Of a DNA stretch of 64,000 nucleotides, positions 52,849 to 56,270 are shown in pieces. The notes below the pieces were generated by a model, which saw only the letters and a program-made list of their open reading frames with translations, searched no databases and was not told the DNA's origin. The stretch lies in the NCBI GenBank assembly GCA_019634575.1, contig JAHCAY010000002.1, forward strand, positions 294,897-358,896, read 5' to 3'. The stretch comes from Candidatus Didemnitutus sp. GTDB taxonomy: Bacteria > Verrucomicrobiota > Verrucomicrobiia > Opitutales > Opitutaceae. Each line of letters starts with the position of its first letter. The first letter of the stretch is position 1. The position numbers and the translations under genes were made by a program.

Positions 52849-53037
52849 TCAACCGACCCGCCGTTTGCGCCGATAGAGTTTCTGTCCGCCGGCCCTTTCA
52901 GGAAACTTCTCAGGTATTCCATCCCGATCCATGCCGCTGCGACCACGCCTCAGTAGTCCACGCCCTTCGCGGAGCTTACGCGGTGACGGATGCCGGTCGC
53001 CAAGGCTCGGCCACCGAATTGGTCAACTGGCTTGAAC
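52849..53037 (+). other. Duplicated non-coding element, copy A (sigma28-like promoter plus ~160 nt conserved downstream)
   Basis: TCAA-N16-GCCGATAG; aligns to 56083..56270 (13 substitutions and 1 indel over the 95-nt core by manual alignment). Confidence 0.75.
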
Positions 53038-53129
53038 GAACTGGCGGACACTTTTCTTTATTTCCCGTTCGCGACCGCAGTGCCGCTGGACATCGCCGAT
53101 CGGTCGCCCGCCACTCGGACCGGCACTGC

Positions 53130-53735
53130 TCACCCGCGCCCGTATCTCCGCTCCTCCCCTAGCTTCGGATGCTCGGGCGGTTGCAGCCAGCCGCGTGCGG
53201 CGCGCACGAGCCACGGCATCAGCAACCACGTCAGCAACGCCACGACGCCCGCCGCGACCGCGCCGGCGAACAGCACCGCCGGCAACGTCGCGCCGAGCAG
53301 CGGTTGCAGGACCGCGCGCACCGCGACCGTCGCGGGCCACACCGCCGCCCACGTCAGCAGCGCCATCTTCCAGCGCGCCGGCGCGTTCTGCGGCGATCGG
53401 AACCACGCCTCCATCCCGTGCAATTGCCGCGACGTCCAATCGTCCTCCGCGAACGGCGCCACGGTCCGGTTCCACTCCTGAAACAACGGCGAGGCGTAGA
53501 ACGCATCGCGATCGCGCGCGCTCGCGAACGTCCGCAGGATGCCGAACTCCGTCGAGCCAGAGCCCGGCGGCGGCACGATCATGCTGGCGCCGAGCACGCC
53601 GTCGTGCGCGAAGGAGCTTTGGAAAAACTTCCTCAACGCCTCCTGATACTGCGCCTCGCACCCGGGCCGCACCCGGCGCGTGATCACCACATGGATCGGT
53701 CCGCCATCGTCGCTCGCTGTCACTTCAGTGTTCAT
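53130..53735 (-). CDS. Antibiotic biosynthesis monooxygenase (ABM)-like protein with C-terminal TM hairpin
   Basis: VVITRRVRPGCEAQY; HGMEAWF...PARWKMAL.TW; WLLMPWL.R..RGWL. Confidence 0.85.
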   Translation of the reverse strand: MNTEVTASDDGGPIHVVITRRVRPGCEAQYQEALRKFFQSSFAHDGVLGASMIVPPPGSGSTEFGILRTFASARDRDAFYASPLFQEWNRTVAPFAEDDWTSRQLHGMEAWFRSPQNAPARWKMALLTWAAVWPATVAVRAVLQPLLGATLPAVLFAGAVAAGVVALLTWLLMPWLVRAARGWLQPPEHPKLGEERRYGRG

Positions 53736-53907
53736 GGTTCATGCTTCCCCGAGGAAGAACGTCACCCTAATCCCGCGCTCCGCCCGAAGGAAAGAGCGCA
53801 ACCGCCGCCCGCCACTTCGCTGTGCGCGGCACGGTGCCGAAAGTTTCACCCGCCGGGAGTAATCTCGCGGCTTGATTCGCCCTCGCACGCTGTCTTCGTG
53901 CCGCCCC

Positions 53908-53949
53908 ACGGGCCACTGCACCTCTCGGTGCGGCGGCCCGTTTTTCTTT
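53908..53949 (+). terminator. Intrinsic terminator in the leader of the aspartic protease pair
   Basis: 15-bp stem with 1 mismatch, 4-nt loop, then TTTTCTTT; ends about 20 nt before ATG 53969. Confidence 0.7.
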
Positions 53950-53968
53950 GTCCGCAAACCCACGCCCC

Positions 53969-55042
53969 ATGTCCACGCCTCCCCTCCCGCCTCCGTTCCA
54001 GATTCCCGCTAATCTGATTTCCGCGCCCGCCTCGATCGTCATTCCGCTCCACGCCATCCCGCTCGGCGGCCCCGCCACCGCGCCGCAAAACTACAAGCTC
54101 GGCCTGCTGGTCCAAGCCACCGACGACCAAGGCCACGCGTCCGCAGCGCAGCTCTTCGAATTCGATACCGGCGGTCAGGGCTTCTGGATGCACCCCACCG
54201 GCTCGTTGCCCAAGCCCGCCATCGCCGACTGCACGCTGCAGATTTCCTACACCAGCGGCATTTCCTACCTCGCCCAGCCCGTCACGCTGCGCCTGACGTT
54301 TCCCGAGGCGACCGCCACGCTTGGCACCACGGTCACCGTCGGCGTGATCGGCAAGATCGAAAACGCGCAGTTCCCGATTTTCGGCGCGTTCTACGGCGAT
54401 TTCGGCGCGGCCCTGCAAGCCTTCACCGGCGACGCCGCGACCCCCGGCAGCCTGCTCACCGCGCTCGCGCAGCTCCCCTCGCCCTACAACAACGGCTTCA
54501 TCGTCGACGTTGGCGGCTATCCGCCCGGCTCGCGCTCCGCCGGCTCCGGCGCGCAGCCGCGCGTGATCGTCGGTCTCACCGACGCGTTGCGCGCCTGTTT
54601 CCCGCAAGCCGTGCCGATGAACGCCGCCGCGCCCTACGCGGGCCAGAGCGGTCCGGTGAACACCTTCGCCGAGACGCTCATTCAAGCGATCCTCACCGTG
54701 AACGGCGCCTCGACGCCGCCCATCGGCGTCGTGTTCGACACCGGCGCGCCACAAGCCCGCGTGCACACCGGCAACGTCGTCGGTGACCAGTTCAAGCCCA
54801 ACACCGGCGACACCGTCACGCTCGTCCCGGTGCCGCCCGCCGGCGCCGCACCCGTGCCGCCGTTTGCGGTGCTGGATTTCGTCGTCGGCAATCCGCCCAA
54901 CGGTGCCGGCTCCGCCAGCCAGGGCGCCCTCAACATCCCGGCCGGCTACATCAACACCGGCCTGAATCCCTTCTACTCGTTCCCCCTCATGTTCGATCTG
55001 CAGAACGGCCTCGTTCGCTTCCCCGCCCTCTCCAACTCCTGA
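53969..55042 (+). CDS. Pepsin-like bilobed aspartic protease 1
   Basis: FEFDTGG and VVFDTGA catalytic motifs, flap ISYTSG, C-terminal INTGLNPF...FDLQNGLVRF; no signal peptide. Confidence 0.8.
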   Translation: MSTPPLPPPFQIPANLISAPASIVIPLHAIPLGGPATAPQNYKLGLLVQATDDQGHASAAQLFEFDTGGQGFWMHPTGSLPKPAIADCTLQISYTSGISYLAQPVTLRLTFPEATATLGTTVTVGVIGKIENAQFPIFGAFYGDFGAALQAFTGDAATPGSLLTALAQLPSPYNNGFIVDVGGYPPGSRSAGSGAQPRVIVGLTDALRACFPQAVPMNAAAPYAGQSGPVNTFAETLIQAILTVNGASTPPIGVVFDTGAPQARVHTGNVVGDQFKPNTGDTVTLVPVPPAGAAPVPPFAVLDFVVGNPPNGAGSASQGALNIPAGYINTGLNPFYSFPLMFDLQNGLVRFPALSNS

Positions 55043-55054
55043 CTCTTCTCCGCC

Positions 55055-56050
55055 ATGCCTGCCTCGTCTCCCGTCATTCGCGTTCCGCTCACCCATCCGC
55101 CCTTCCACGGTCAGGCCACGGGCAACAGCTACAACGTCACGCTCCAAGTCTCGCCCTCCGCGCCGACGCCGAGTCCGATTCATCCCTGCCAGGTCGACAC
55201 CGGCTCGTGCGGCATCGTCATCCCCGCGTCGCTGCTCTACGCCAACGGCTCCGTCGGCGGCACGCTTCTCCCCGGCGTCACGCGCGGCGTGGCCGCGCCG
55301 CCGATCCGCTACCAACCCTCGAACAAGGAATTCCAAGGCTGGTATTACACCGTCGCCGAACTCGCCATCGGCGCCTCGCTCGATCACCCGCCGGCCTTCA
55401 TCGCGCAAAACATCACCGTCGTGGGCATCGACGACCCCGACCCCGGCGTCGGCATGATGGGCGTCGGCTTCGGCCGCCCCACGCAATACGGCTCCAACGT
55501 CTTCCTCAGCGCGCCGGGCATCAACCCGTCCTTCCTGCTCACGACCGATGGCATCTGGCTCGGCTACACCGCGGCGACGCTGCCCAACGCCGCGGCCTTC
55601 GGCTTCCAACAGCTCACGCCCACGCTCACCGGCGACTGGAATACTCCGGCCGCGACCATCACCGTCACGACGCCCGACGCCGCGCTGCCCGCCTTCCCCG
55701 GCAACGCCCTGCTCGATACCGGCGTCACGCTGATGATGCTCGGCGTCACGCAACCGCTCACGCCCGCACTGCTCACCGGCAGCACGATCGAGATCGCCTG
55801 GCCCAATACCGACAACACCGCGACGATCCTCAGCTACAGCTTCCAGGTGACCGGCCCCGCCACCGACGCCACGATGCCCGGCCAATATCTCGTCAGCGGC
55901 GACTCCGTCATGAATCCGAAGTGCCTCATCGCGCTCGGTGCCAAGTCTCCCGCCTTCGTGAACACCGGCATCAACGTCATTCGCGGCGCGGATATCTTCT
56001 TCGACTCCGCCGCCGGCTGCATCGGCTTCCGCCCCACCGGTGCGACCTGA
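55055..56050 (+). CDS. Pepsin-like bilobed aspartic protease 2
   Basis: QVDTGS and LLDTGV, flap IRYQPS, GMMGVGF psi-loop, VNTGINVI...FFDSAAGCIGF; no signal peptide. Confidence 0.8.
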   Translation: MPASSPVIRVPLTHPPFHGQATGNSYNVTLQVSPSAPTPSPIHPCQVDTGSCGIVIPASLLYANGSVGGTLLPGVTRGVAAPPIRYQPSNKEFQGWYYTVAELAIGASLDHPPAFIAQNITVVGIDDPDPGVGMMGVGFGRPTQYGSNVFLSAPGINPSFLLTTDGIWLGYTAATLPNAAAFGFQQLTPTLTGDWNTPAATITVTTPDAALPAFPGNALLDTGVTLMMLGVTQPLTPALLTGSTIEIAWPNTDNTATILSYSFQVTGPATDATMPGQYLVSGDSVMNPKCLIALGAKSPAFVNTGINVIRGADIFFDSAAGCIGFRPTGAT

Positions 56051-56082
56051 GCGACTCACCGCGCACCCGCGCGCTTTTCTCG

Positions 56083-56270
56083 TCAAGCCCCGCACCGCAT
56101 GCGCCGATATACTCCATGTCCGCCGGTTCTTTCAGTAAACTCATCAGGCATACTATCCCATACATGCCGCTGCGATCACGCCCAAGTAGTCCCACTCCCA
56201 TCGCGGAGCCTAAACGGTGACGAATGCCGATCGCTAGGGCTTGGCCACCGAATTGGTCATCACGCCTGAA
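56083..56270 (+). other. Duplicated non-coding element, copy B (sigma28-like promoter plus conserved downstream)
   Basis: TCAA-N16-GCCGATAT; direct repeat of 52849..53037 at about 3.23 kb distance. Confidence 0.75.

Follow-up and report, generated by a model that had tools for sequence, protein, structure and literature searches.

In Escherichia coli the small RNAs (sRNAs) UhpU, MotR, FliX, and FlgO are sigma-28-dependent, untranslated-region-derived members of the flagellar late regulon (PMC10578931), and in Campylobacter jejuni CJnc170 (FlmR), an sRNA dependent on FliA, acts on flagellar biogenesis and motility (PMC11187230). A 64-kb stretch of DNA from Candidatus Didemnitutus sp., a member of the Verrucomicrobiota (contig JAHCAY010000002.1, positions 294,897 to 358,896; the whole stretch is referred to here as the window), contains two copies, designated A and B, of a short repeat that begins with a putative sigma-28-type promoter. 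We read each repeat, with moderate confidence and from sequence comparison, as a self-contained gene for a clade-restricted structured non-coding RNA of approximately 168 nt under sigma-28-type control. The family is probably a new one, and its members are candidate bacterial sRNA genes.

The E. coli sRNAs provide a working model for the element, the points of likeness being the FliA-type promoter and the putative association with the late regulon. The element differs from these sRNAs in standing alone, in belonging to the Verrucomicrobiota, and in the long helix that is predicted to close its 5' and 3' ends, and it has no sequence or Rfam similarity to them. The element resembles CJnc170 as an sRNA depending on FliA, a dependence that in the element is predicted from the motif, but it is unrelated to CJnc170 in sequence and comes from another phylum. 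The element is also similar to 6S RNA (ssrS) in size (approximately 170 to 190 nt for 6S RNA), in the pairing of the 5' and 3' ends in a long helix, and in usually being present in single copy with occasional paralogues. However, the predicted fold of the element is multibranched, with a covarying hairpin where 6S RNA has an open bubble, its promoter is of the sigma-28 type, and metatranscriptome contigs give no sign that it is highly abundant. A 6S-like identity was rejected because of the branched fold and because the isolated element gave no 6S match even at E<=10. Orphan structured non-coding RNA "motif" families in Rfam are, like the element, defined by conservation, consensus fold, and genomic context within one clade, but the element is not in Rfam 15 and carries a recognizable alternative-sigma promoter, a feature absent from most of these motifs. 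Full-text literature searches found no papers describing small RNAs in Opitutaceae or Verrucomicrobia.

The repeated unit and its predicted promoter

Coordinates refer to the forward strand of the window, and loci with L numbers are those of relatives, either Opitutia metagenome-assembled genomes (MAGs) or metagenome contigs. A repeat search of the window identified copies A and B as direct repeats on the plus strand, 3234 nt apart from start to start; blastn and nhmmer likewise found them bracketing the protease genes, as an earlier note on this DNA had described. Searching the 64 kb with nhmmer and a hidden Markov model built from the pair placed copy A at 52849 to 53059 and copy B at 56083 to 56294. 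No third copy was found in the window with nhmmer, blastn, or covariance model R1. The two copies aligned over 190 nt with 80% identity (blastn, E value of 2.5e-42), and the RNA cores were 80.5% identical, lower than the approximately 85% core identity reported earlier. The start positions in the earlier note were correct, as was the TCAA-N16-GCCGATA that it saw at the start of both copies, but the repeat reaches 13 to 25 nt further in the 3' direction than it had given. The longer 3' extent matters because the added bases, CYGGCGGACA (53041 to 53050 and 56274 to 56283), are complementary to TGTCCGCCGG (52883 to 52892 and 56117 to 56126), which sits just 3' of the promoter motif in both copies.

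Each unit consists of the promoter motif T[AC]AA-N16-GCCGATA, seven variable bases, and a core of 167 to 168 nt whose ends pair as an approximately 20-bp helix, with a pyrimidine-rich tail coming next. In copy A the sigma-28-type motif, TCAACCG...GCCGATA, is located at 52849 to 52875 with the spacing seen in all 10 variants compared below, and the 168-nt core, a divergent type 1 sequence, extends from 52883 to 53050. Its predicted helices are the closing helix (52883 to 52902 with 53031 to 53050), a hairpin (52913 to 52935), an internal helix (52936 to 52948 with 52992 to 53006), and a second hairpin (53007 to 53026), after which the pyrimidine- and U-rich tail CTTTTCTTTATTTCC is found at 53051 to 53065. 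Its covariance-model score of 172 bits is the lowest among the variants. The motif of copy B, TCAAGCC...GCCGATA, is at 56083 to 56109, followed by a 167-nt type 2 core (56117 to 56283; covariance-model score of 187 bits) with the corresponding predicted closing helix (56117 to 56136 with 56265 to 56283), hairpin (56147 to 56168), internal helix (56169 to 56181 with 56226 to 56240), and hairpin (56241 to 56260), and by the tail ATTTAATCTCCGC at 56284 to 56296. All of these features are on the plus strand. A C/U-rich tract of variable sequence follows the closing helix in 10 of 10 variants.

FliA and SigD promoters, as known from E. coli and Bacillus subtilis, have a TAAA-like -35 element and a GCCGATAA-like -10 element approximately 15 nt apart, and chemotaxis receptor genes are a classic sigma-28 target class. 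We take the -35 and -10 blocks of the element to match this consensus, and by motif the promoter of the element is classed as sigma-28 (FliA) type. The assignment is supported by the site TAAAGTTC-N12-ACCGATAA on the plus strand at 27100 to 27126, approximately 20 nt 5' of the open reading frame (ORF) for a methyl-accepting chemotaxis protein (27146 to 28798). The window contains two chemotaxis receptor genes, indicating that the organism has a chemotaxis system. The pattern T[AC]AA-N16-[GA]CCGATA occurs at four sites in the window, compared with 0.06 expected, and two of the four are copies A and B. A plus-strand TCAAGC...GCCGATA site at 21801 to 21827 is located at the start of a gene for a dCache hybrid histidine kinase; the ATG at 21869, and not the GTG at 21707, is its likely true start codon. 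In a more distant Opitutaceae MAG, L041, TCAAGAAC-N12-GCCGATA (12463 to 12489) is found 5' of a 141-aa gene, beside a homologue of the 547-aa membrane protein described below. L041 has this promoter-like site and no copy of the element, and thus the promoter class is wider than the element.

Three blocks, a T-tract (CTTTTCYCRT), TCAAGCC, and GCCGATA, are conserved at fixed distances in the 10 variants and in further variants from public runs. The spacer between the -35 and -10 blocks and the 7-nt discriminator before the core vary freely. The -35 and -10 blocks are near-invariant, the exceptions being TCAACC in copy A, GTCGATG in L027, and GACGATA in L046. The T-tract, upstream of the -35 block, is kept in all variants irrespective of the upstream neighbor and may belong to the promoter as an UP-like element or be the tail of an insulating terminator. 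At copy B, a terminator-like GC hairpin 3' of the stop codon of the second protease-like gene, together with the T-tract preceding the -35 block, spans 56060 to 56082 on the plus strand.

If the element is an sRNA gene as proposed, the sigma-28 (FliA)-type promoter would start transcription approximately 7 nt (6 to 9 nt) past GCCGATA, at the first base of the closing helix. The predicted plus-strand RNA would be approximately 170 nt long, with its 3' end just past CCGGCGGAC; the approximately 20-bp helix would join its 5' and 3' ends and enclose several internal hairpins, and the C/U-rich tract would come after the helix. Such an RNA would be part of the late-gene regulon for motility and chemotaxis, acting in trans through base pairing or protein binding. 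Transcription of the element as RNA, its dependence on sigma-28, the RNA ends, and the trans-acting function are points that we infer.

Conservation, predicted fold, and transcript evidence for the core

A pattern scan that covered one genome per species detected the element once in each of three Opitutia MAGs, one of them labeled Candidatus Didemnitutus, at approximately 90% identity and with unrelated flanks. Additional loci were found through contigs encoding homologues of the ABM protein and of the 547-aa membrane protein, both described below. The Opitutia MAGs and metagenome contigs yielded 10 distinct core variants with unrelated flanks. In independent lineages the similarity begins approximately 10 nt 5' of the -35 block and ends 4 to 10 nt past the closing helix. 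No additional copies were detected in 325 kb of the relatives' loci with covariance model R1, nhmmer, and blastn. Contigs encoding ABM homologues at 61 to 69% identity or homologues of the 547-aa protein at 37 to 38% identity had no element nearby. A metagenome scan with the two-block pattern returned chance matches only; natural variants with GCCGCCGCGA or GCCGCGGCGA show that the pattern was too strict. As far as sampled, the family appears to be restricted to one clade of Opitutia (Verrucomicrobiota) and to be normally single-copy.

Cores are 94 to 98% identical within a type, and types 1 and 2 differ by 12 to 15%. The neighboring ABM gene has 84 to 90% nucleotide identity, with differences at 20 to 30% of third positions. 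Copy B groups with type 2, sharing 92 to 96% identity with the one copy that each of L019, L046, and L043 carries; copy A is 86 to 89% identical to type 1 and approximately 80% identical to type 2. The absence of an Rfam family, which the earlier note had supposed, was confirmed. Rfam 15 gave no match at gathering score over the window, and searches at E<=10 of the region and of the isolated element from two genomes gave only chance matches, the best scores on the element (radC, 11.8 bits with a cut-off of 40; STnc420, 17.9 bits with a cut-off of 70) being at chance level. The possibility of a CsrA sponge was rejected because our own reading of the sequence found only three GGA motifs, and that of a retron or guide RNA was rejected because the element has neither a reverse transcriptase nor a constant nuclease as neighbor.

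The closing helix, with 10 invariant base pairs extended to approximately 20 bp, was common to all folds computed, and its extension is preserved between types 1 and 2 through an indel and substitutions. Pairing was counted on a curated 51-pair structure with 509 pair cells, 96.3% of which were canonical, compared with 24 to 45% after the partners were slid by 1 to 3 columns. Columns were variable at 23 of 68 unpaired positions versus 14 of 102 paired positions (p = 0.002), and some unpaired stretches, such as a CCGAAU loop, are invariant. Fold z-scores were -4.05 for L003 and -2.99 for copy B. Compensatory substitutions maintain helices: at pair 61-116 the variants have C-G, U.G, or U-A, and at pair 128-145 they have U-A or C-G; contigs from public runs add U.G intermediates at both. 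The compensatory change that the earlier note had seen between the two copies, C52943-G52996 in A and U56176-A56230 in B, is present as it described. The covariation evidence is thin because the sequences are 85 to 99% alike. On the plus-strand reading there are 39 G.U cells versus 7 A.C cells, which, together with the promoter, favors the plus strand.

Several observations weigh against the interpretation of the element as a discrete sigma-28-dependent RNA gene. The covariation amounts to two pairs and few events, and the observed covariation score was reached by 9 of 500 shuffles, a figure that is not a probability. Inside the closing helix the fold is ambiguous: for L003, the structure of minimum energy departs from the consensus there. 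The minus strand folds equally stably or slightly more so, leaving folding energy indecisive for the choice of strand. There is no canonical intrinsic terminator, as the closing helix encloses approximately 130 nt and is followed by a weak or C-rich U-tract; a terminator scan found no Rho-independent terminator inside the element, and the U-run after the approximately 20-bp helix is short. The family was sampled in close relatives only, and no fliA gene was seen among the ORFs scanned in the window. Furthermore, in metatranscriptomes the contigs carrying the element continue beyond it on either side, with the neighboring genes at similar depth.

These metatranscriptome contigs come from close variants in relatives and carry no strand information. 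The pattern is compatible with DNA carry-over or read-through and neither supports nor refutes a discrete RNA. The genome studied here was present in no public run searched. The earlier suggestion of a sigma-28-dependent structured sRNA family finds partial support in the comparison: a sigma-28-type promoter motif and a structured core form a conserved non-coding unit with homologues in relatives and no Rfam family, and the unit is a candidate RNA gene. One contig from a biofilm metatranscriptome (L006, position 3936; run X14) stops at core position 77 and then continues into Illumina adapter sequence, and this single adapter-joined end could mark a fragment or an RNA end inside the element. 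Elsewhere in the window, positions 47602 to 48669 reached a depth of up to approximately 220 in four RNA runs, compared with 1 to 10 in other places, with many chimeric joints. The probable cause of the high depth is that reads from numerous organisms cross-map to a strongly conserved stretch, which may be the gene for a type II topoisomerase B subunit upstream of parC.

Locus organization and neighboring genes

The locus lies downstream of a parC-like topoisomerase IV gene, past an island with lineage-variable gene content, and exists in two main states among the relatives. In A-type loci (L003, L006/21/23, L022-26, L027-30, and L037) the island is followed by a type 1 element, a convergent 547-aa gene, the ABM gene, and a divergent 181-aa gene; L010 has a type 1 copy followed instead by a co-oriented BON-domain gene. 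A-type loci lack the protease genes, and they provide the relatives with one copy and no protease cassette that the earlier note had proposed to look for, with the copy at the A position. In B-type loci (L019/L020, L043, and L046) the order is the island, the 547-aa gene where present, the ABM gene, two protease-like genes, a type 2 element, and a co-oriented 175-aa gene; these loci have a single copy at the B position and none at the A position. Among the loci compared, both copies occur together only in the window. Downstream of the element the next gene varies among loci: the 547-aa gene or ABM in convergent orientation, or a BON-domain or 175-aa gene in the same orientation as the element. 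This diversity counts in favor of the element being an independent gene.

In the window the ABM-family gene (201 aa; Pfam ABM) is on the minus strand at 53130 to 53735, convergent with copy A, which, as noted earlier, has no co-oriented gene downstream. Homologues of ABM are present in all relatives, with or without the protease cassette, at 84 to 95% identity, and ABM is a core gene of the locus. In most relatives the gene for the 547-aa membrane protein overlaps the stop codon of ABM (compared with L021, 10593 to 12236); this gene is cleanly absent from the window, L019, and L043; the window keeps approximately 70 nt between copy A and ABM (53051 to 53129).

The first protease-like gene, P1 (53969 to 55042, plus strand), encodes two DTG motifs, has no Pfam match, and is syntenic with the second, P2, in L019, L043, and L046; P1 and P2 are barely similar (BLASTP E value of 0.036). 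P2 (55055 to 56050, plus strand) encodes a homologue of pepsin-like aspartic peptidases. Its AlphaFold model has a mean predicted local distance difference test (pLDDT) score of 92.9, and the top Foldseek matches are all pepsin-family proteinases. The motifs D48-T-G-S and D221-T-G are conserved across 28 homologues, with T222 nearly invariant. The P2 family is rare and patchy, with 67 database clusters, including some from Azospirillum and Methylobacterium. The protease genes always have a type 2 copy directly downstream. Copy B is followed after 130 nt by a co-oriented gene for a conserved 175-aa protein of unknown function (56413 to 56940, plus strand), and the 175- to 181-aa protein is found in relatives.

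Between the parC-like gene and the element, or ABM, lies a hot spot in which gene content varies (51393 to 52848 in the window, 10606 to 12470 in L019, 12520 to 16800 in L021, 5900 to 9500 in L022, and 4490 to 6250 in L043). It contains a trypsin-like gene and ORF6N in the window, and elsewhere it contains dcm-MvaI/BcnI-vsr restriction-modification genes with a helix-turn-helix gene, SAD/SRA-HNH, HNH_2, a Schlafen-like helicase, 23S-rRNA-IVP-like proteins, or NOV_C and PIN-MazE. No integrase was seen in these stretches.

Copy A has 14 private changes, compared with 0 to 3 in every other variant, and 4 of the 14 break predicted pairs; it also has the altered -35 block TCAACC in place of the TCAAGCC found elsewhere, in addition to the lowest covariance-model score. 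Copy A evolves 3 to 4 times faster in this genome and therefore looks redundant and under relaxed constraint. The two-copy state is better read as a type 2 element accompanied by a retained, faster-evolving type 1 element. In the simplest history, the two copies would have arisen when a segment consisting of P1, P2, and a type 2 element came between ABM and the 175-aa gene; the type 1 element, by then redundant, would have disappeared from three lineages as the island turned over and would be drifting in this genome. An alternative order of events is an ancestral duplication followed by reciprocal loss.

Alternative explanations and significance

It is possible, although unlikely, that the element is a promoter with a structured 5' leader that regulates a downstream gene in cis; the target would be the BON-domain gene in L010 and, at copy B, the 175-aa gene. 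The distance from the element to the co-oriented 175-aa gene downstream is 130 to 400 nt for copy B and every other type 2 copy, the gene that follows the element in L010 is likewise co-oriented, and metatranscriptome contigs continue beyond the 3' end of the element. However, in most type 1 lineages and at copy A the element faces a convergent gene that ends 16 to 80 nt away, so that there is nothing to regulate in cis, and the 181-aa gene of type 1 genomes has no such leader. The element keeps no consistent position before a co-oriented gene, and it matches no riboswitch or leader in Rfam. The minus strand could instead be the functional one, providing a 3'-UTR (untranslated region) or terminator structure, or an antisense RNA, for the convergent operon of ABM and the 547-aa gene. 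This is a very improbable reading, even with the type 1 element starting 16 to 45 nt past the stop codon of the opposite-strand 547-aa gene, with the slightly more stable minus-strand fold, and with one metatranscriptome contig that joins the element and the 547-aa gene. No gene on the minus strand lies upstream of the type 2 copies, and the conserved blocks, variable spacer, and fixed spacing make sense on the plus strand only. The U.G pairs at 61-116, 128-145, and 15-156 would become A.C mismatches on the minus strand, on which the same helices are 90% paired, compared with 96% on the plus strand, and no T-run follows the helix. A protein-coding reading of the element, as a decayed gene or a very small one, is hardly credible. 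All type 1 copies share one open frame on the minus strand, and the 34-aa plus-strand ORF from ATG 56116 that the earlier note listed is found in copy B alone. However, one-base indels between variants shift every frame, and the open minus-strand frame, the only one through the type 1 copies, has 1 synonymous versus 11 nonsynonymous variable sites with no third-position bias. Coding hypotheses were rejected on both strands; in the pair, the earlier note had already observed a broken shared ORF and substitutions without third-position bias. Moreover, 94 to 98% conservation is far too high for a pseudogene beside genes with 20 to 30% third-position divergence. No frame is kept across variants, the open frame lacks a synonymous excess, and the element is non-coding.

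The earlier note also proposed that the repeats mediated gain of a cassette comprising ABM and the proteases. A role as recombination or mobility sequences, either att-like or as a miniature inverted-repeat transposable element (MITE) with 10-bp terminal inverted repeats, in the gain or loss of the cassette is very unlikely. Like MITEs and att repeats, copies A and B are direct repeats around accessory genes, here a 3.2-kb segment, the core ends form a short inverted repeat, and the region 5' of the element is the hot spot of variable genes. Unlike such sequences, the element is single-copy in relatives (each of the three matched species genomes has one, as does each of the other loci) and is orthologously conserved together with its promoter. 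No integrase or transposase adjoins the element in any flank examined, and no target-site duplication was seen at the element. Copies A and B are only 80% alike, each being closer to its orthologues (86 to 89% for A and 92 to 96% for B) than to the other. Blastn found no match in plasmids or phages, and a scan of viral contigs gave 0 matches. The proposal that the repeats brought in the cassette is thus unsupported: the repeats did not deliver ABM, a core gene that is present whether or not the cassette is, and the three cassette-bearing relatives hold a single copy. Recombination between A and B would delete ABM, a state seen in no locus.

The comparison corrects the idea that the repeats explain the acquisition of the pepsin-like cassette. 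The locus also offers a natural experiment in paralogue turnover, in that relatives keep one of two diverged types and the extra copy in this genome is losing predicted pairs. A more speculative possibility, for which the odds are rather low, is that the element differs from ordinary base-pairing sRNAs and represents an elaborately folded RNA of a new class, with a multihelix junction and near-invariant loops. Such an RNA would be closer in kind to a riboswitch aptamer, ribozyme, or protein-binding RNA; it would be one that serves the sigma-28 motility regulon of bacteria of the Planctomycetes-Verrucomicrobia-Chlamydiae (PVC) group and has two diverged functional types, of which genomes keep essentially one. 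As proposed here, the element is a concrete, bounded sRNA candidate for which the promoter class and the ends are predicted and a testable fold and covariance model are available. Confirmation of the RNA would extend sigma-28-controlled riboregulation of motility beyond Proteobacteria and Campylobacterota.

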